The notes: generated by a model not told the origin, from the sequence alone. 64,000 nt of DNA from an uncultured Gemmatimonadales bacterium (GCA_963817715.1 CAWFPG010000009.1:117574-181573), one strand, 5' to 3'; positions 52,693 to 62,340 are shown, counted from the first letter of the stretch. Translations and numbers: made by a program.

Positions 52693-53295
52693 GTGACCGA
52701 CCCATCGACCGAACCGGCCCCACACCAGATCACCGGCCTGCTGCGCCAGGCAGCCGCCGGCCGCCGGGACGCGCTCGATGAGCTGATGCCGCTGGTGTAC
52801 GACGAGCTCTCGGGGATGGCCCGGGCCCGGCTCCGGCACGAGGCCCCCGGCCACACCCTGGAGACCGCCGGCCTGGTCCATGAGGCCTGGCTGCGGCTGA
52901 TCGACCAGCACCGGGCCAACTGGCAGGACCGCCAGCACTTCTTCGCCGTGGCCTCCGAGGCGATGCGACGCATCCTCGTCGACCACGCCAAGCGTCGTCG
53001 CGCGGCCAAGCGCGGCGGGGGAGCGGCTCACCTGCCGCTCGACGCCGCCGACCGGATTGGACGGGCGTTCGGGCCGGGCCACGATCCCGACGACACCGTG
53101 GTGGCACTCGACGATGCGCTCGACCGACTCGCCGCCTTCAATGCCGACGGTGCCCGAGTGGTGCAGTACCGCTTCTTCGCGGGTCTGTCGAATGGCGAGG
53201 TGGCCGAGTTGCTGGGGACCAGCGAGCGCACCGTGCGGAGGGCGTGGACCGCGGCGCGAGCCTGGCTCCGTCGTGAGCTCGTCACGGCGCGGTAA
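52693..53295 (+). CDS. ECF-type RNA polymerase sigma factor (kinase-associated ECF43-like group)
   Basis: 200 aa. ITGLLRQAAAGRRDALDELMPLVYDELSGMARARLRHEAPGHTLETAGLVHEAWLRL..ANWQDRQHFFAVASEAMRRILVDHAKRRRAAKRGG and the region 4 sequence ERTVRRAWTAARAWL are diagnostic of this ECF family. The stop overlaps the kinase ATG (TAATG). Confidence 0.85.
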   Translation: MTDPSTEPAPHQITGLLRQAAAGRRDALDELMPLVYDELSGMARARLRHEAPGHTLETAGLVHEAWLRLIDQHRANWQDRQHFFAVASEAMRRILVDHAKRRRAAKRGGGAAHLPLDAADRIGRAFGPGHDPDDTVVALDDALDRLAAFNADGARVVQYRFFAGLSNGEVAELLGTSERTVRRAWTAARAWLRRELVTAR

Positions 53296-55952
53296 TGGAT
53301 CAGGTGCGCTGGGCCCGGATCGAGGCGCTCTGCGAGGCGGCGCTCGAGCAGCCATCCGGCGAACGAGAGGGCTGGCTCGCCGCGGCATGCGGGGACGACG
53401 CGCTGCTGCTGGCCGAGGTCACCTCACTACTGGAGCAGCTTCGCGCCGACCCCGATTTCCTCGAGCGGCCGGCCGTCGACCTGGGCAGGGCGTCATTGGC
53501 AGCGCCCGGCGGCGGCACACTGCCGACGGCAATCGATCGGTGGCAGATCGTGCGACGGCTCGGTCGCGGCGGGATGGGCGAGGTTTTTCTCGGTGAGTGC
53601 AACGGCGACCAGGTGGCGATCAAGGTCCTGCGCGACGACATCGACTCGGCCGAGATTGTCCGGCGCTTCGCCCTTGAGCAACGGATCCTTGCCACCCTGC
53701 AGCATCCCAACATCGCCAGACTCCTGGAGGCCACGCTCACGGCCGATGGCCGGCCCTGCGTGGTCCTCGAGTACGTGGCCGGGGTGCCGATCACCGCCCA
53801 CGCCGACCTGCGCCGCCTCTCGCTGCGCGACCGCATGGCGCTCGTGATCGCGGTGTGCGGTGCGGTCGAGCACGCCCATCGCAGTCTCGTGGTCCATCGC
53901 GACATCAAGCCCGCCAACATCCTGGTGACCGACGACGGCACGCCGGTGCTGCTCGACTTCGGCATCGGGAAGGTCCTCGACCGGACCGGGATGATGGGCT
54001 CGGTGATCGAGACCAGCGGCACCGACCGCTTGCTGACCCTCGACTATGCCGCACCGGAACAGTTGCGGGGCGAGGTCGTGACCACCGCCACCGACGTGCA
54101 TGCACTTGGCGTGCTCCTGCACGAGCTGCTCACCGGGCTCCATCCCTTCCGGCACGTGGGATCGACTCCGGGCCAGGTCGAGCACGCGATTCTTGAGCAG
54201 GAGCCCGATCGACCGAGCGCGGTGGTCCGCGTGGCCCCGGCGAGCGGCCCGGTCGCCGAGGGCGACGCCCGAGCTCGCGCGGAAGCGCGCGGGTTCGGCA
54301 GCGCCGAGGCGCTCGGCCGTCGCCTCGGCGGCGACATCGACAACATCGTGCTCATGGCGCTCCGCAAGGAGCCGGAGCGACGCTATCCCTCGGTCGCGGC
54401 ACTGGCGGAAGACCTGCGCCGTCACCTCGGGGGCCGGCCGGTTCGCGCCCGGCCGGACACGCTCGGCTACCGCGCCCGCAAGTTCGTGCGCCGCAACGCC
54501 GGGTCGGTCGCAACGGCCACACTCGCGGTGCTGGCGCTGCTGGCCACCACGGGGGCGGCGCTGCGGGCATCGCGCCGTGCCACGCACAACGCCGCCGCAA
54601 CCGAGGCCGAGCGAGACGAGGCAGTTGCGGTCCGCGGTTTCCTGATGGAGATGTTCGGCGCGACGGGTGGCGGCCAGCGGGTCGGCCAGTCGGAAACGGT
54701 GCGGCAGCTGCTCGATCGCCAGGCCGCGCGCATCGACAGTGCGCACGGCGACGACCCGCTTCTGGCGGCGCGCCTCGACGAGGTCGTGGCCGACGCCTAC
54801 GACCGGCTCGGGCTCCCCGATCAGGCGGTGCCGCTCGCCGAGCGCGCACTGGCGCTGCGACGGGCGAACCAGCCGGAGAGCGATCCCCGGGTGACGGGGG
54901 CTGAGAACCTGCTCGGCTGGGTCCTGCACCAGAGCGGGCATGGCGACGAGGCCGAGTCGCACCTGCGCGTTGCCGCAACGCTCGCCCGGACCCACGGCGA
55001 TTCCGGCGCCCTGGCCCATGCACTCAACGATTTGGGGGTGCTGTACAACGCCGCGGGTCGCTATGCCGAGGCCGACTCGACCCTCACCGAGGCGCTGGCG
55101 CTGCGACGCGCCGTCGACGGCGATGGCAACCTCGGCGTGGGGATCACCGCCAACAACCTCGCGGCCGCGTTCTACTATCAGGCCAGGTACGGCGAGGCGG
55201 TTGCCACCCAGCAGGTGGCGCTCGGCGCGCTGCGTGCCAGTGTGGGGAAGGACCACCAGCGCACGGTGATCGCCCGCAGCAACCTGGCCGCGTTCCGGAT
55301 GGCCGACGGCGACTTCATCAGCGCCGAGCGCGACTACCGCGAACTGCTCGCGCAGCAGACCCGCCTGCAGGGCCCCGAGCATCCGGTCACCCGTCGGGTG
55401 GTGCTGGCGCTGACCGCTGCCCTGATCGGGCGGCAGGATGCCGGTCGGCCGGAGGCGCTCCGCGAGGCGGACTCCCTGCTCACCGCCCTGATGGCAATCG
55501 AGGAACGCACCAACGCGACACCGGCCGATCGAGGCTCCACCTTCGACCGCCTTGCCGGGGTGCGATTGGCGCGAGACGACGCCACGAGTGCCCTCGACCT
55601 CGCCCGTCGGGCGGTCGCGACGCTCACCCTGGCGCACGGCCCGCGACATCCCGACGTGGCATCGGCCAGCGGTCGACTCGCGTTGATCGAAGCACGACTC
55701 GGCGACACCCAGTCGGCCATGCGCCACGCGCGCGAGGGGCTGGCCACGCTGGTCGATCGCCTCGGCAGCGATCATCCCGAGACGGCGCGCGGACGCGGCC
55801 GGCTGTGTCGAGTCATGGTTGCGGTCGGGTCGGATTCCGCGAACGCCGCCGACACCTGTGCGGCGGCGATGGCCGGGCTCGAGAATGCGCCCGCCGGCTA
55901 TCGCGGCGAGCTGGCGGAGGTGCGGCGGGTATCAGGCCGCCGAGGGGGATGA
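53295..55952 (+). CDS. Ser/Thr protein kinase with one TM and C-terminal TPR repeats, 885 aa
   Basis: Hanks-type kinase motifs (GRGGMGEVF, VAIKVL, HRDIKPANILV, DFGIGK, APEQ), TM segment AGSVATATLAVLALLATTGAAL, then multiple TPR-like repeats. The last 8 codons lie in repeat 55927-56107. Confidence 0.9.
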   Translation: MDQVRWARIEALCEAALEQPSGEREGWLAAACGDDALLLAEVTSLLEQLRADPDFLERPAVDLGRASLAAPGGGTLPTAIDRWQIVRRLGRGGMGEVFLGECNGDQVAIKVLRDDIDSAEIVRRFALEQRILATLQHPNIARLLEATLTADGRPCVVLEYVAGVPITAHADLRRLSLRDRMALVIAVCGAVEHAHRSLVVHRDIKPANILVTDDGTPVLLDFGIGKVLDRTGMMGSVIETSGTDRLLTLDYAAPEQLRGEVVTTATDVHALGVLLHELLTGLHPFRHVGSTPGQVEHAILEQEPDRPSAVVRVAPASGPVAEGDARARAEARGFGSAEALGRRLGGDIDNIVLMALRKEPERRYPSVAALAEDLRRHLGGRPVRARPDTLGYRARKFVRRNAGSVATATLAVLALLATTGAALRASRRATHNAAATEAERDEAVAVRGFLMEMFGATGGGQRVGQSETVRQLLDRQAARIDSAHGDDPLLAARLDEVVADAYDRLGLPDQAVPLAERALALRRANQPESDPRVTGAENLLGWVLHQSGHGDEAESHLRVAATLARTHGDSGALAHALNDLGVLYNAAGRYAEADSTLTEALALRRAVDGDGNLGVGITANNLAAAFYYQARYGEAVATQQVALGALRASVGKDHQRTVIARSNLAAFRMADGDFISAERDYRELLAQQTRLQGPEHPVTRRVVLALTAALIGRQDAGRPEALREADSLLTALMAIEERTNATPADRGSTFDRLAGVRLARDDATSALDLARRAVATLTLAHGPRHPDVASASGRLALIEARLGDTQSAMRHAREGLATLVDRLGSDHPETARGRGRLCRVMVAVGSDSANAADTCAAAMAGLENAPAGYRGELAEVRRVSGRRGG

Positions 55953-56121: not shown

Positions 56122-57195
56122 TCACTCCGCACCGACGACGGCGCCACGACGATGCGTGGCGTGCGCCTCCTGCAGCGCGTCGAGCAGCGGTGCGGCGTCG
56201 AATCGTACCGGGTCGGTGGCCGGCAGTCCGGTCTCCTCACTGGCCTTGCGGCACGCCTCGCGCGCCTCGTCGTCCGGGAGGTCGAAGGTGTTGAGCGCGA
56301 TGCCCACCACCTTCGAGGGATGGACCAGGTTGGCCATCGTCTCGTACAGCCGCACATACTCCGCCAGCGGCGGCAGCGCCAGCCAGCTCGCCTTGCGGTA
56401 GTCGCCGATGTACTTGCGGCTGGCCTGGTGGCAGAGGATCATCGCGTCGGGGCAGCTGCCATGCAGCAGGCCGAGGGTCACCCCGGAGTAGCCCGGATGG
56501 TTGATGCTCCCCTGCCCCTCCACCAGCACCACGTCGGCACCCTCGGCGCCCTTGCAGGTGATCACCTCGGCGGCGCCGCCGATGAAGTCGGCCACCACCG
56601 CGTCGACGCCGATGCCCCATCCCTCGACCATGATCCCGGTCTGGCCGGTGGCCACGAAGTTGGTGCGCAGGCCGCGAGCCCGGAGCCCGCGCACCAGCTG
56701 CAGCTGGGCGGTCATCTTGCCGACGTTGCAGTCGGTGCCGACCGTGAGCACCACCAGCGCGTCGAGGTCGCGCGCCTTGCCGCTGGAGACCGGCAGTCCC
56801 CGCGGCGGCCGTCGGATGTCGGTGATGGTGCGGCCGGTGCGGGTCGCGGCGGCGGCGAGATCGGGGTCGTCGCCGAGGAAGGTGTGCAGCCCCGAGACGA
56901 TGTCGCAGCCGCCTTCGAGTGACTCGAGCAGCCACGCGTGCCAGGTGTCGGGGAGGCCGCCACCCACCGGGGCGATCCCGATCAGCACCGAGTTGGCGCC
57001 AAGCGCCAGCCCCTCGGCCATGGTGGCGACGACGGGAATCCCCCCGCCGTAGCCCAGGACGTCCTGCACGGTCTTGCCGGCCTGGGTGCTGTCGAGCACC
57101 GCCACCACTGCGTCGGGCTGGTAGCGGATGACCGAGTTGGCGGTCTTGGAGAGCAGCGGCGTGAAGTCGCCGTCGGCGAGAATGAGATGGCGCAT
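56122..57195 (-). CDS. DUF1611-family protein (P-loop-like, DgcN-type putative N-acetyltransferase)
   Basis: 357 aa from ATG 57195 (MRHLILADGDFTPLLSKTANSVIRY..VLTVGTDCNVGKMT..VLVEGQGSINHPGYSGVTLGLLHG). The family assignment is from memory of conserved blocks. Confidence 0.6.
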   Translation of the reverse strand: MRHLILADGDFTPLLSKTANSVIRYQPDAVVAVLDSTQAGKTVQDVLGYGGGIPVVATMAEGLALGANSVLIGIAPVGGGLPDTWHAWLLESLEGGCDIVSGLHTFLGDDPDLAAAATRTGRTITDIRRPPRGLPVSSGKARDLDALVVLTVGTDCNVGKMTAQLQLVRGLRARGLRTNFVATGQTGIMVEGWGIGVDAVVADFIGGAAEVITCKGAEGADVVLVEGQGSINHPGYSGVTLGLLHGSCPDAMILCHQASRKYIGDYRKASWLALPPLAEYVRLYETMANLVHPSKVVGIALNTFDLPDDEAREACRKASEETGLPATDPVRFDAAPLLDALQEAHATHRRGAVVGAE

Positions 57196-57260
57196 CGCGT
57201 CTCGCGGTGCGCCATCCTGCTGCGACGTCGCTCGCGGCGTCGACGAGGAATCGTGGTTCG

Positions 57261-58028
57261 TCACCCCTGGTCGTTCTCCTCGACCACTTCGGCCTCGCTC
57301 TCGTCGCCGTCCTTGGCGCCACCGATCTGCTTGGGCGGGCCCTCCTGCCCCGCACCGAGCACGCCCATCTTCTGCTTCAGCTCGAGCAGCTGCTGATCGG
57401 CGTTGCCGTGGAACTCGAGTTGCTCGAATTCGCGGCTCAGGTTGTCGCCGCTGAACTCCTCCTGCAGCTCGGCCGCGGCCAGCGCCTTGCGCTCGTTGGC
57501 CTCGATCCGCTCCTGCATCCGGTCGAACGACTCGAAGGCGCTCTTGTCGCCCATCCCCGCCAGCGTCTCCTGGATCTTCTGCTGCGCCTCGGCCCGTCGG
57601 GCCCGGGCGATGAGGATGTTCTTCTTGCGCTTCGCCTCCTCGATCTTCTCGTTGAGCTGGCGCAGCGAGTGCTTGAGCGCCTCCGTCTCCTGCTTGCTCT
57701 TGACCCATGTCTCGTGCAGCGCCTGGGCGCCCTGGAGCGCCTCGTTGTAGCGCATCAGCGCCTGCTTGGCGAGGTCGTCGCGCCCCTCCTGCACCGCCAG
57801 CATCGCCCGGCGTTCCCAGTCCTCGGCCTGCTTCTTCTGGGCCGCCGCGTCGGCCGCGAGCTTCTTCTCGTCGGCGATCGCCTGGGCGACCTGCTGGCGT
57901 GCCTTGTCGAGCTGGCTCCGCATGTCGGTGATCAGCTGCACCAGCATCTTCTCGGGATTCTCGGCCCGGGAGATGAGGTCGTTGATGTTGCTGCGCAGCA
58001 TCGTCGCGAAACGGTCAAAGATGCCCAT
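57261..58028 (-). CDS. pspA: PspA/IM30 family protein
   Basis: 255 aa: MGIFDRFATMLRSNINDLISRAENPEKMLVQLITDMRSQL, followed by a long coiled coil. Confidence 0.9.
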   Translation of the reverse strand: MGIFDRFATMLRSNINDLISRAENPEKMLVQLITDMRSQLDKARQQVAQAIADEKKLAADAAAQKKQAEDWERRAMLAVQEGRDDLAKQALMRYNEALQGAQALHETWVKSKQETEALKHSLRQLNEKIEEAKRKKNILIARARRAEAQQKIQETLAGMGDKSAFESFDRMQERIEANERKALAAAELQEEFSGDNLSREFEQLEFHGNADQQLLELKQKMGVLGAGQEGPPKQIGGAKDGDESEAEVVEENDQG

Positions 58029-58034
58029 GGTCGT

Positions 58035-58505
58035 TCACCCCTCCCCGAACGGCGCGAGGCTGCCGGCGTGTGACGCGAGTGCAAGGCTGAGCGAGTCGAC
58101 GCTCCCCTCGAACTCGGAGTAGTCCAGGTTGGCGAGTTCCAGCGTGTCCGTGAGGACCACGTGGTCGCCCTCGACGCCGTACGACCCGTGCACCAGGTCG
58201 CGGGCGTTGTATTCCAGCAGCTTGCGGCAGAGCTCTCCGGCACGCGCCGGGTCGGCGGGCAGCTGCAGGACGCGCACCCGCAGCACCAGCACTGGCGGAG
58301 CGTAGTTCACGGCCAGCTCGGCACCGTCCGCGATGCGGACCAGCCAGATGTCCTCGGCCACCGATTCGACCGGCGCTTCGAGCCGGTCGAGCCAGGCCTG
58401 CACGTCCTCGCGAGTGGTCATCGTCGCTCCTTCTGACCCGGCCCAGCCGGGTATCCATTCGGGAAACGTAGCGGCCCCCGGAAGCGGGGCCAACGACTGC
58501 GTCAT
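58035..58505 (-). CDS. YbjN / type III secretion chaperone-like domain protein
   Basis: 156 aa. ATG 58505 overlaps the upstream stop (ATGA). The alpha/beta pattern ..WLVRIADGAELAVNYAPPVLVLRVRVL..LLEYNARDLVHGSYGVEGDHVVLTDTLEL..FEGSVDSLSLAL fits the YbjN/CesT-like fold. Inferred only. Confidence 0.5.
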   Translation of the reverse strand: MTQSLAPLPGAATFPEWIPGWAGSEGATMTTREDVQAWLDRLEAPVESVAEDIWLVRIADGAELAVNYAPPVLVLRVRVLQLPADPARAGELCRKLLEYNARDLVHGSYGVEGDHVVLTDTLELANLDYSEFEGSVDSLSLALASHAGSLAPFGEG

Positions 58506-58849
58506 CGCTGTTCGGTCACCTCGTCGCGACTGGCCAGCAGCCGCTCCGCGAAGTCCTGGCGTTCCTCCAACTCCAGCACCCGGGCCCGCAGCTCATCGAG
58601 CTCGCCGTAGACCTCGGCCGACACCTCGCCGGTGCTCTCCGCCGGGTCCTGGCCGATCCTGGCGGCGAGCGCCTTGGCCACCGGGGAACGCGCCAACACG
58701 ATCACCAACACCACGGCCATCAGCCAGATGGGCACCGCGTCGTCGCCCATCGAGGCCGACGCCGCCGCCAGCGCCCCGCCGATCCCCAATCCGGCGAGCC
58801 CCAGCCCGATGAACGCCGCCGTGCGCCAGTCGTCCTTGTGCTCACTCAT
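58502..58849 (-). CDS. PspB-like small membrane protein, paralog 6 (115 aa)
   Basis: 2 TM segments (..VPIWLMAVVLVIVLA), RSPVAKALAARI, and C-terminal helix ELDELRARVLELEERQDFAERLLAS. Confidence 0.75.
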   Translation of the reverse strand: MSEHKDDWRTAAFIGLGLAGLGIGGALAAASASMGDDAVPIWLMAVVLVIVLARSPVAKALAARIGQDPAESTGEVSAEVYGELDELRARVLELEERQDFAERLLASRDEVTEQR

Positions 58850-59213
58850 GCTGTCCCCCTGACTCTATCGCGGCGGACTCCGAACGCCTCGCCAGCAATC
58901 GCTCGGCGAAATCCTGCCGTTCCTCCATCTCCAGCATCCGGGCCCGCAGATCGTCGAGCTCGGCATACACCTCTTCGGGGACATCGAGCGCGGCGTCGGA
59001 GGGCTCGGCGGCCCCGTGAAGCCGTGCGGCGATCGCCTTGCCGACCGGGCCGCGCATGATCAGGATCGCGGCGACCATCGTGACGCCCCAGATCGGGATC
59101 GCGGCGGGACCGATGATCCCGGTGACCCCGAGGAGTCCGCCCATCACCGCCATCGTTGCGATCGCGAGCCCCAGGAACATCCATCCCGTTCCGCCATCGT
59201 GTCTGGGGTTCAT
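58842..59213 (-). CDS. PspB-like small membrane protein, paralog 5 (123 aa)
   Basis: 2 TM segments (..IPIWGVTMVAAILIM), RGPVGKAIAARL, and ELDDLRARMLEMEERQDFAERLLAR. 8-nt overlap with paralog 6. Confidence 0.75.
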   Translation of the reverse strand: MNPRHDGGTGWMFLGLAIATMAVMGGLLGVTGIIGPAAIPIWGVTMVAAILIMRGPVGKAIAARLHGAAEPSDAALDVPEEVYAELDDLRARMLEMEERQDFAERLLARRSESAAIESGGQHE

Positions 59214-59575
59214 CCCTCACCCTCCTTGCCACTGCGGGAGAGGAGCCGCTCCACGAACTGGACCCGCTCCTCGAGTTCGTACATCCGGTGGTCGGCCACT
59301 TCGAACTCGCCGCTCCCGATCGCCTGTTGTTCCATCATCTCCAGTCGCGCCCGGAGATCCTCCAGCTCGACCCGGAGCTTCCTGTCACCGCCCTCCAGCC
59401 GTCGGGCGATCGCTCGTGCCAGCGGCCAGAGAATGATCACCGCACCGAGCGTCATCGCGACCACGATCAACACCATCGCCTCGGGCGGCATCGTCTCCCA
59501 TGGCGGCAGCGGTCCCGTCTGGGTCACCACCACCGGATCGGGGATGGGCGGAATGTCGGGGATCGCCTGGATCAC
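59210..59575 (-). CDS. PspB-like small membrane protein, paralog 4 (about 121 aa, Pro-rich N-terminus)
   Basis: GTG 59575 (GTGA overlap with the paralog 3 stop; an internal ATG alternative exists). TM segment AMVLIVVAMTLGAVIILWPL, ARAIARRL, ..YELEERVQFVERLLSR. Confidence 0.65.
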   Translation of the reverse strand: MIQAIPDIPPIPDPVVVTQTGPLPPWETMPPEAMVLIVVAMTLGAVIILWPLARAIARRLEGGDRKLRVELEDLRARLEMMEQQAIGSGEFEVADHRMYELEERVQFVERLLSRSGKEGEG

Positions 59576-59955
59576 GACTCCTCCGACGACCGCAACCGTC
59601 CCGGATCGGTGTGCTGGGCCAGCAACCGCTCGGTGAAGTCGAGCCGGTCCTCGATTTCCATCAGCCGCTGGGTCTCGAGCGAGATCTCCTGGAGCCGGTC
59701 CTCGACGTCGGCGAGCCGCACGCCGAGCATCGGGTCGTGCTCCCTCCCGTCCTCGAGCAGGCCGGCGATCGCCTTGCCGACGGGCCCGCGGAAGACCAGC
59801 CAGGACATCGCGATGAGTCCGATCAGACCAGCGCCCACCATCGCGTCGCCCTGACGCGAGATCTCGTCGAGCAGGACCACGAGAAAGGTCCCGGCCATCA
59901 GGATCAGCCCCAGCACCATCACCATGCCGATCACCTTCGACGTTCGAGAGGCCAT
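59572..59955 (-). CDS. PspB-like small membrane protein, paralog 3 (127 aa)
   Basis: 2 TM segments, RGPVGKAIAGLL, ..LMEIEDRLDFTERLLAQ. The start overlaps the paralog 2 stop. Confidence 0.75.
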   Translation of the reverse strand: MASRTSKVIGMVMVLGLILMAGTFLVVLLDEISRQGDAMVGAGLIGLIAMSWLVFRGPVGKAIAGLLEDGREHDPMLGVRLADVEDRLQEISLETQRLMEIEDRLDFTERLLAQHTDPGRLRSSEES

Positions 59956-60230
59956 CAGGTCGTCTCTCCATGCTGGTGGGTGGGCGCATCCGCACGCTGG
60001 GCCAACAGCCGCTCGCTGAAGTCGAGCCGCTCGTGCACCTCGCTCAACTGCTCGTGCACATGGTCGAGCTCGGCGCGCAGGGCATCGACCTCGGCCAGCA
60101 GCCGCGGATCGGCCTCGCCACCGCGACCCGCGATCCGATCGGCCAGCGCCAGCCCGACCGGGCTCTTCACGAGGATCGCCGAGACCGGCACCAGGAACGC
60201 CATGGCCATGATGATGAGGGCGAAGCTCAT
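59955..60230 (-). CDS. PspB-like small membrane protein, paralog 2 (91 aa)
   Basis: MSFALIIMAMAFLVPVSAILV (TM), KSPVGLALADRI, ..LSEVHERLDFSERLLAQ. Confidence 0.75.
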   Translation of the reverse strand: MSFALIIMAMAFLVPVSAILVKSPVGLALADRIAGRGGEADPRLLAEVDALRAELDHVHEQLSEVHERLDFSERLLAQRADAPTHQHGETT

Positions 60231-60231
60231 C

Positions 60232-60501
60232 TCAGCCCTCTCCCTCGGATGGTCGGGCCGGCGGTGCCTCGCTGCCACGCGCCAGCAGCCGCTCGGCAAA
60301 GTCGAGCCGCTCGTGTATCTCACTCACCTCGACCCGTAGCCGGTCGACCTCATCGTACAGCCCCTCATCGATCTCGGGCGCCGGCAACGGCTGCTTGCCG
60401 TGCCGAAGCCGCTCGGCGAGCGCCTTCCCCAGCGGCGAGAACGACAGCATGACCAGGGTGCCCCCACCGAAGAGGAGGATGATGGCAAGGATGTCTTCCA
60501 G
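60232..60501 (-). CDS. PspB-like small membrane protein, paralog 1 (about 89 aa if CTG start)
   Basis: The ATG ORF 60232..60450 lacks the TM. The same frame is open upstream through LEDILAIILLFGGGTLV, with CTG 60501 placed 6 nt after AGGAGG (60508-60513). SPLGKALAERL, ..VSEIHERLDFAERLLAR. Confidence 0.55.
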   Translation of the reverse strand: MEDILAIILLFGGGTLVMLSFSPLGKALAERLRHGKQPLPAPEIDEGLYDEVDRLRVEVSEIHERLDFAERLLARGSEAPPARPSEGEG

Positions 60502-60574
60502 CGGATGCCTCCTGATATGGGAGATGACCGCCCTACGGGGGACAGCGGGCTGATGTTTCAGCCAGAAACGGGCG

Positions 60575-61459
60575 TCAGGACTGGCGCGGCTTGAGCTGGA
60601 CCAGCCGCTCCTTGGCCAGCCGCCGGCCAGTGGGGGTGGCGGCCAGCCCGCCCCCAGCGGTCTCGCGGTAGCGGACGTCCATGTCCCGGCCGATCTTGCC
60701 CATCGTGTCGATCACTTCATCGACCGGGATGGGGAAGCCGACATCGGCCAGCGCCATCTCGATGCCGGCCAGCGCCATCGCCGCCCCGGTGGCATTGCGA
60801 TAGACGCAGGGCACCTCGACCAGGCCGCCCAGGGGATCGCAGACCAGGCCGAGGGTCCCCTGCATGGTGATCGAGACCGCCTGCATCGCCTGCCGCGGGG
60901 TACCCCCGAGCAGCTCGACCCCAGCGGCTGCGGCCATTCCGGCGGCGGCCCCGGTCTCGGCCTGGCAGCCGCCTTCGGCACCCGAGAGCGAAGCCCGGAC
61001 GGCGACCACCGCACCGACCAGTCCGGCCGTGGCCAACGCCCGCACCAGTTCGGCATCGCTCGATCCGTGATGCTTGGCGAGCCCGAGCAGGGTACCCGGC
61101 AGGACCCCGGCCCCGCCGGCGGTCGGGGCGGCGACGATCACCCCCATTGCGGCATTGATCTCCTGCACCGCAAGCGCGGCGGCGAGCGCGTCGACGAACG
61201 CCGTGCCGGCGAGCGGACCGTGGCCGGCCGCGAGCTTGGCGGCGTCGCCGCCGACCAGCCCCGACACCGAGCGGATGTCGCCCTTGATGCCGCGCTCGAC
61301 CGCACCGCGCATCACATCGAGGGCACGCTGGAGCCCGGCCTCGACCTGCTCGCGGGTCCGGAGCCCCTCGTCAGCCTCGGTCCTGAGCGCCAGCTCGCCG
61401 AGGGAGAGCCCAGCCGCCTCAGCTGCCTCGACCGCCTCGAGCACCGAGTCGAACATCAT
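60575..61459 (-). CDS. sdaAA: L-serine dehydratase, iron-sulfur-dependent, alpha subunit
   Basis: 294 aa from ATG 61459 (MMFDSVLEAV..PTAGGAGVLPG..GAEGGCQAE..LVCDPLGGLVEVPC). ATGA overlap with the sdaAB stop. Confidence 0.9.
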   Translation of the reverse strand: MMFDSVLEAVEAAEAAGLSLGELALRTEADEGLRTREQVEAGLQRALDVMRGAVERGIKGDIRSVSGLVGGDAAKLAAGHGPLAGTAFVDALAAALAVQEINAAMGVIVAAPTAGGAGVLPGTLLGLAKHHGSSDAELVRALATAGLVGAVVAVRASLSGAEGGCQAETGAAAGMAAAAGVELLGGTPRQAMQAVSITMQGTLGLVCDPLGGLVEVPCVYRNATGAAMALAGIEMALADVGFPIPVDEVIDTMGKIGRDMDVRYRETAGGGLAATPTGRRLAKERLVQLKPRQS

Positions 61460-62124: not shown

Positions 62125-62340
62125 TCAGACCAGTTCCGCCGTCGTGATCGCGCCGAGCGAGATGGCAATCTCGGTCTCGTCGTCACCCGATGGCTTGAGG
62201 AAGACCTCATGGGCGGTGGGATGCAGGTCGACGCTGGTGGGCAGGCCGAGCACCTCGGTGCCGTCCTCCAGCACCAGACGCACCGCGCGGTCGTTGCCGC
62301 TGGCAAATCCCAGGATCTCGATCATGGCGTCGAATTGCAT
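62125..62340 (-). CDS. hypothetical small protein (71 aa)
   Basis: ATG 62340 (MQFDAMIEILGFASGNDRAVRLVLEDGTEV...). The stop lies 2 nt before the sdaAB start. Coding-like composition; no family recognised. Confidence 0.5.
   Translation of the reverse strand: MQFDAMIEILGFASGNDRAVRLVLEDGTEVLGLPTSVDLHPTAHEVFLKPSGDDETEIAISLGAITTAELV

Follow-up and report, generated by a model that had tools for sequence, protein, structure and literature searches.

How PspA/IM30/Vipp1 proteins, the bacterial ESCRT-III, find their way to stressed membranes is known for only a handful of partners, each specific to a lineage: PspBC, LiaI and PspM. In the proteobacterial pspFABC system, PspB and PspC are small inner-membrane proteins of the pspA operon in which a transmembrane (TM) segment is followed by a cytoplasmic, leucine-zipper-like helix, and they act as stress sensors or anchors for PspA. 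In Bacillus subtilis, pspA is sigmaW-dependent, and both this pspA (ydjF) operon and the LiaI-LiaH system place a PspA homolog under envelope-stress control, with the small membrane protein LiaI as the anchor of the PspA homolog. A further arrangement, the yjfI-yjfJ type, has a gene of CesT/Tir fold immediately upstream of a PspA-family gene, the former being a proposed chaperone for membrane-associated assembly, and duplicated pspB genes have also been described in psp operons (PMC11237479). In this article, I will discuss a locus on the minus strand of a 64,000-nt stretch of DNA (the window) from an uncultured Gemmatimonadales bacterium (GCA_963817715.1 CAWFPG010000009.1:117574-181573), in which six consecutive genes for small membrane proteins precede a CesT-like gene, pspA and a DUF1611 gene, and which appears, from its gene content and conservation, to be a Psp system with a new, non-homologous family of membrane partners. 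The CesT/Tir-PspA pair and the duplication of PspB were already known; what is new is the paralog family itself, which forms arrays of 2-12 genes, carries a characteristic motif, is restricted so far to Gemmatimonadota and has an extracytoplasmic-function (ECF)-type promoter, none of this being in Pfam, NCBIfam or the 2024 Psp survey.

To examine the linkage of the array to pspA, ORFs (open reading frames) were taken from stop to stop in 87 fetched loci and the window, 88 in all, and these ORFs were searched with a hidden Markov model (HMM) of the family and with the window's PspA, CesT-like, DUF1611 and SdaA proteins. Complete context, meaning an array with at least 500 nt upstream and a contig that runs on downstream, was available for 73 loci, and pspA follows the array on the same strand in every one of them. 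Among these complete loci the array was never unlinked from pspA, and the expanded set of small membrane paralogs that a sequence-only reading had linked to pspA in the window turns out to be tightly linked to it across relatives. The nine loci without pspA mostly stop at or near the array, and one (L052) holds a solo copy only. In 52 of the 73 complete loci a CesT-like gene separates array and pspA; the roughly 21 that lack it keep the array, and there the last paralog lies only 4-7 nt from pspA in seven loci and at most 130 nt from it in most others. At least 59 of the 73 have a DUF1611 gene after pspA. The genes upstream of the array are variable, with SdaA/serine dehydratase, whose beta and alpha chain genes are the array's upstream neighbours in the window, detected there in only about one third of the loci, which argues that the adjacency of array and pspA is a selected association and not passive synteny.

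The number of copies per array ranges from 2 to 12, with five in 19 loci, six in 16, seven in 12 and four in 8; for L045 and L063, one solo copy each, about 4 kb before the array, is counted in. The window's six copies are not extreme, and some Gemmatimonadota carry 10-11 tandem paralogs before pspA (L045, 7224-10378; L063, 7875-11488; L083 and L082). The solo copies are high-scoring family members of about 100 aa that stand directly after uvrA (L045, 3266-3568; L063, 3268-3570; L052, 2472-2771) and have no ECF motif; in L045, genes for a DPP-IV-like protein and an M23 peptidase lie between the solo copy and the array.

Within the window, the six ORFs were recovered by ORF calling and direct translation at the positions given by the sequence-only reading. 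They are paralog 1 (60232-60501, 89 aa, one TM segment), of the most conserved class (MEDILAI.F.FGGG...SPxGKAxAxR); paralog 2 (59955-60230, 91 aa, one TM segment); paralog 3 (59572-59955, 127 aa, two TM segments); paralog 4 (59210-59575, 121 aa, GTG start, one TM segment), in which the N-terminus is proline-rich and the C-terminal helix is split; paralog 5 (58842-59213, 123 aa, two TM segments), of the AAIPIW class; and paralog 6 (58502-58849, 115 aa, two TM segments), of the VPIW class. The hydropathy scan from which these TM counts come agrees with the one or two hydrophobic helices attributed to each ORF beforehand, and the junctions are likewise as described, namely a 1-nt gap, TGATG, GTGA, ATGA and an 8-nt overlap, with a GGAGG-like Shine-Dalgarno site 5-10 nt 5' of each of the six starts. 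That the six are paralogs was also borne out, as alignment shows an invariant P..A.A in the juxtamembrane part and E..R..F.ERLL in the C-terminal helix, at pairwise identities of only 23-43%. Positional orthologs in other loci are closer than this: 64-80% identical in L001, the closest relative (67%, 80% and 78% for paralogs 2, 3 and 4), 43-70% in L002 and 50-57% in L005. The paralogs are, judging from these identities, old and individually conserved. Their order from 1 to 6 is kept in close relatives, with gains, losses and reshuffling in distant ones, and the class-1 paralog (MEDILAI.F.FGGG) is recognised in 61 of the 88 loci.

The paralogs are a differentiated and undescribed family of small inner-membrane proteins. 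The common plan runs from a last TM segment through the basic juxtamembrane string [RK][SG]PxGxAxAxR and a linker to a helix that ends in E-E-R-x-D-F-x-E-R-[LM]-L, and it fits all six paralogs of the window and 482 of 496 units from the 88 loci. The shared C-terminal helix is about 35 residues long, has heptad-spaced hydrophobic residues and carries the near-invariant 13-residue motif E-L-E-E-R-[LVQ]-D-F-x-E-R-L-L; among 453 unique units, the consensus is E-L-E-E-R-[LV]-D-F-[ATS]-E-R-[LM]-L and conservation reaches 88% for the first E, 95% for E-4, 99% for R-3, 93% for D-1 and 96% for L+5, while the 100% of F0, E+2 and R+3 is not independent, these residues having belonged to the pattern that anchored the motif. 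In the AF2 model of paralog 6 (pLDDT 90), residues 7-53 form the TM region, 56-66 a juxtamembrane helix and 78-114 the long C-terminal helix, and by the positive-inside rule the conserved C-terminal helix would be cytoplasmic. Profile-HMM searches yielded no credible match for the paralogs among the Pfam (2025 copy), NCBIfam (2026), PHROG or PADLOC models; a Foldseek search of the AF2 model against the Protein Data Bank (PDB) returned 0 matches. The only PDB sequence match of the family profile is full-length KcsA, at a marginal E=0.025, through its TM2 and C-terminal tetramerisation bundle (LHERFDRLERMLDD); the paralogs take part in it with their C-terminal helices (for example 58502-58620 on the minus strand). 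Two proteins in which two units are fused (P0004 and P0009) are probably artefacts of read-through or frameshifting, since fusion would make their topology inconsistent, and were kept out of structure prediction.

The family is also a large one. A profile of the six paralogs found at least 3437 proteins among 5.8 billion, with E down to about 1e-41, a similarity well outside what chance would give, all without a Pfam domain and, where named, nearly all called "hypothetical protein" of Gemmatimonadales or Gemmatimonadetes; HMMER, run exhaustively over 1.84 billion cluster representatives (50% identity), gave 2438 matches at E<=0.001, of which 488 reach E<=1e-10. When GTDB was scanned with one genome for each species, 270 loci were confirmed, and of the best 80 of these 270 genome matches, 79 are titled Gemmatimonadota, Gemmatimonadales or Gemmatimonadaceae and 1 "uncultured bacterium", so that among the named loci in the best 80 of 270 the family has so far been found only in Gemmatimonadota.

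A regulatory feature had gone unnoticed in the earlier reading. The 73-nt gap between sdaA-alpha and the array contains TGAAACATCAGCCCGCTGTCCCCCGTA (60560-60534, minus strand), that is TGAAAC-N17-CGTA, 33 nt upstream of the start of paralog 1. The two boxes are those of the B. subtilis sigmaW consensus (PMC5758882), and the layout of that type (-35 TGAAAC and -10 CGTA, 16-17 nt apart) is found at 60534-60560. The pattern TGAAAC-N14-19-CGTA has this single match in the 64-kb window, where 0.02 would be expected, and in the 1.29 Mb of the 88 loci it has 64 matches, all on the array strand and none on the opposite one; for 56 of the 64, the first paralog follows at a distance of at most 250 nt. 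In 57 of the 64 matches the boxes are 17 nt apart, and the sequences between them are unrelated. In lineages without the CesT-like gene, the TGAAAC/CGTA motif stands immediately ahead of either the last paralog or pspA. The upstream motif is thus a predicted ECF-sigma promoter, which would make the array a member of an envelope-stress regulon. An ECF sigma gene (PF07638/TIGR02999) and a gene for a Ser/Thr kinase with TPR repeats, which starts at the last base of the sigma gene, lie at 52693-55952 on the plus strand of the window, convergent with the psp operon and about 170 nt beyond it; the pair is also present in L001-L004 and does not adjoin the locus in L005 and related loci.

Downstream of the array, the gene with a YbjN- or chaperone-like product in the sequence-only reading (58035-58505) is better described as CesT/Tir-like, since its product matches PF22550 (CesT_Tir_1) at 3e-25, with 89 bits against a cut-off of 27, whereas YbjN is matched weakly, at 18.2 bits, below the cut-off of 22. 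It is followed by pspA (57261-58028, 255 aa), whose identity as a member of the PspA/IM30 family holds: PF04012 is matched at 4e-48 and 164 bits (cut-off 33.9), over protein residues 2-219 and model positions 1-216 of 220, with TIGR02977 matched at 139 bits, below its equivalog cut-off. The last gene, absent from the earlier reading, encodes a 380-aa DUF1611/DgcN-like protein (56122-57264; PF07755 at 1.5e-73, and PF17396); its GTG start overlaps the pspA stop (GTGA), and its 290 bits against NF041892 DgcN are below the cut-off of 480. The 2024 survey mentions neither DUF1611 nor Gemmatimonadetes (PMC11237479), and literature searches on DUF1611 and on Gemmatimonadetes together with PspA found nothing relevant. 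Compared with the yjfI-yjfJ type, the CesT/Tir-PspA pair is here preceded by the paralog array and followed by the DgcN-like DUF1611 gene, and the Band-7/flotillin, AAA+ and YqiJ partners are not among the genes called around related loci.

The unbroken chain of overlapping genes from the array into pspA, as first proposed, fares less well. The ATGA overlap between paralog 6 and the CesT-like ORF is present in the sequence, yet it is probably not the start of the real gene: the CesT-like proteins called in L001-L007 are 128 aa long, conservation begins at the N-terminus MTTREDVQAW and does not reach back into the 28 codons before it, and the corresponding ATG at 58421 is preceded by AAGGAG. 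The CesT-like gene therefore most likely occupies 58035-58421 (128 aa), which opens an 80-nt intergenic region (58422-58501) and ends the translationally coupled chain after paralog 6, so that in the window's lineage the array is probably not translationally coupled to cesT-pspA.

This gap is itself a conserved element. Read on the minus strand, it consists of a -35-like TTGGCC (58493-58488), a GC-rich 17-nt hairpin that occupies the 17-nt spacer (58492-58472), TACGTTTCC with a -10-like TACGTT (58470-58465), a second hairpin (58452-58436) and the Shine-Dalgarno site AAGGAG (58432-58427). At least 11 distinct loci share this layout, with TTGGCN, then a GC-rich hairpin, the invariant CTACGTTTC(C), another hairpin, and finally AAGGAG with the ATG. 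In the gap, TACGTTTC is invariant, and in 10 of the 11 loci TACGTT has a TTG 16-18 nt before it; TACGTTTC is also met in front of unrelated genes, there at about 17 nt from a preceding TTGACG or TTGAAT. The hairpin stems differ in sequence from locus to locus yet pair, at -10 to -17 kcal/mol, in folds computed for each sequence. Such folds were used because RNAalifold, run on a MAFFT alignment of the element, recovers hairpin 2 only, with one compensatory pair, and misses hairpin 1 on account of indels that misalign it. Rfam has no match in 57000-60800, the gap element included, and a terminator scan found only two terminator-like sites, at chance level. The element probably serves as a promoter internal to the locus, as a terminator-like hairpin or as both, and, with moderate confidence, I would read it as a sigma-70-type promoter with a non-consensus -10, the spacer of which doubles as a hairpin closing the array transcript.

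Taken together, I consider it reasonably probable that this is a Gemmatimonadota-specific membrane-stress locus of PspA (IM30/ESCRT-III-like), in which the paralogs are lineage-specific membrane partners for PspA. Under envelope stress, an ECF-sigma promoter would switch on the array, and cesT-pspA-DUF1611 would gain extra expression from an internal promoter of its own. The cytoplasmic helices of the paralogs could then come together beneath the membrane as a hetero-oligomeric coiled-coil platform that recruits, nucleates or regulates PspA, whether as anchor, sensor or nucleator, and the CesT-like protein would probably be the chaperone of PspA, a role put forward for CesT/Tir-PspA pairs in other settings (PMC11237479). 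The TM and periplasmic parts, being variable, would diversify what is sensed or where the platform is positioned, and the platform would fill, through a non-homologous family, the role that PspB/PspC, LiaI or PspM have in other phyla. A more specific and much more tentative version, which I would put forward as a speculation that is unlikely to hold in full, is that the paralogs co-assemble through their ELEERxDFxERLL helices into a dedicated membrane receptor or nucleator of the ESCRT-III-like PspA polymer, an undescribed, ECF-switched recruitment device in which 2-12 subunits tune where and when PspA polymerises. Should the motif indeed bind PspA or the CesT-like chaperone, it would represent a new mode of recruitment for ESCRT-III-like proteins; should it bind neither, the family would still be a new, phylum-wide component of an envelope-stress regulon that deserves a family definition. 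Either way, a large family in a poorly studied phylum comes with features that lend themselves to testing: a 13-residue motif, positional classes, an ECF-type promoter and an internal hairpin with a promoter-like element.

The closest known proteins in outline are PspB and PspC, and the sequence-only reading had taken the paralogs for an expanded array of PspB-like anchors or sensors for PspA, which would make them divergent true homologs of PspB. The outline is the same (a small protein of a pspA operon with an N-terminal TM segment and a presumably cytoplasmic helix), the PIW(L) string in the last TM segment of paralogs 5 and 6 resembles the LPIWLWL of PspB, hhalign sets the family helix LRxRVxELEERLD against RMRERIQALESILD of PspB, and the PspB duplicates already mentioned provide a precedent. 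Homology is nevertheless not detectable: none of the six paralogs matches PF06667 at E<=1, only 5 of 72 family members match it at all (best E=0.09), less often than they match generic coiled-coil families, and hhalign probabilities are 11.7% with the single E. coli sequence, 10.4% with a 20-sequence alignment and 1.1% with the PIW class only, over just 16-26 helix columns with the TM region unaligned. The E. coli query is 97-100% identical to database PspB proteins, and the PspB profile is a shallow one, of enterobacterial sequences 84-99% identical. Against the single-TM plan of about 75 aa of PspB, paralogs 1 and 2 fit loosely, whereas paralogs 3, 5 and 6 have two TM segments and paralog 4 a proline-rich N-terminal extension. 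The motif ERxDFxERLL is absent from PspB, the 2-12 paralogs are differentiated, the gene order is reversed, with the array upstream of pspA and pspB downstream of it, control is predicted to be by an ECF sigma and not by sigma54/PspF, and neither a PspC-core nor a PspF (GAFTGA) signature is present in the window by a crude regular-expression search of the six-frame translations, as the sequence-only reading had also noted. "PspB-like" is thus an architectural analogy only, true homology being highly improbable, and the statement that no described Psp locus has such an array agrees with the broad 2024 survey, which contains none (PMC11237479). The LiaI system offers no closer relative, because the paralogs match no LiaI/LiaF-TM or other Pfam model, the phylum is a different one and the multi-paralog array has no counterpart there; what is shared is the regulatory theme of TGAAAC/CGTA boxes. 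This theme could also be turned into another explanation, in which the paralogs are signalling parts of an ECF pathway, as anti-sigma-like or kinase-modulating membrane proteins, and not partners of PspA; the conserved promoter motif upstream of the array and the nearby ECF sigma/kinase-TPR pair of the window and L001-L004 would fit. However, the paralogs have neither an anti-sigma domain nor a zinc-binding motif, what is conserved in them is a C-terminal helix where anti-sigma factors have an N-terminal cytoplasmic domain, 6-12 paralogs per locus would be atypical for such regulators, the sigma/kinase pair is not kept beside the locus throughout, and the window's ECF sigma gene has no TGAAAC-N17-CGTA upstream, all of which leaves this the least credible of the explanations considered here.

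The main rival to the paralogs being partners of PspA is that they form a self-contained, hetero-oligomeric membrane complex, a parallel bundle of scaffold- or channel-like character below the membrane, that shares an envelope-stress regulon with PspA or is a client protected by it, and is not its receptor. An invariant motif in a heptad helix common to all paralogs is what mutual packing would lead one to expect, the six paralogs are tightly coupled to one another in translation and not into cesT-pspA, and a hairpin and promoter-like element stand between the two. The KcsA match may hint at such a bundle below the membrane, by analogy and not homology, in that a TM helix of KcsA also runs into a cytoplasmic helix of about 40 residues with an ER.D..ER.L-type sequence, which in KcsA forms a parallel bundle. 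This likeness is marginal and perhaps reflects convergent coiled-coil composition, since the paralogs have no pore helix, pore or selectivity-filter segment, and the Foldseek search found no structural match in the PDB. Moreover, adjacency to pspA in 73 of 73 loci, near-abutting where the CesT-like gene is missing, is stronger than usual for co-regulation, and in some lineages the ECF motif stands directly before pspA or the last paralog. I would therefore regard an autonomous complex as possible, but on the unlikely side. That the paralogs are partners of PspA, the reading preferred here, has to be held against several further points. What ties them to PspA and the CesT-like protein is association and shared predicted regulation, and the invariant motif could be there solely for the paralogs to assemble with one another. 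The gap hairpin and promoter-like element suggest that in this lineage the two parts are transcribed separately, at least to some extent. A generic sigma-70 promoter scan found no promoter and did not call the gap element, and both promoter assignments are motif-based. A copy number of 2-12 argues against a fixed stoichiometric machine, and the claim that the array is "stoichiometrically coupled to one PspA" is not supported, in view of this variation among relatives and of the conserved 80-nt gap that intervenes. Finally, the taxonomic restriction is based on those best 80 of 270 genome matches, and one cluster member, on a 4-kb contig of a metagenome-assembled genome, is labelled Actinomycetota, possibly by mis-binning.

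One correction concerns the start of the array, on which the earlier reading was silent. At 60501-60499, the first codon of the 89-aa form of paralog 1 is CTG, with no ATG, GTG or TTG there, and ORF calling begins the gene at the ATG at 60450 instead, giving 72 aa and losing the TM helix; the gene call for the class-1 unit of L001 is a downstream ATG that removes the TM helix in the same way. The aligned start codon of class-1 units in other loci is ATG in 36 cases, GTG in 15 and TTG in 1, and CTG occurs only in the window and in L001; AGGAGG precedes the CTG by 6 nt, and a protein 76% identical to paralog 1 (P0120) begins MEDIL. The 89-aa form with a rare CTG start is probably right, favoured by the start codons at the aligned position elsewhere and by the AGGAGG. 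Further upstream, between a Ser/Thr kinase gene and sdaA-beta, lies an ORF of 71 aa without a family match (62125-62340, minus strand), which is conserved in close relatives (L001, 5336-5551; L002, 5597-5812).

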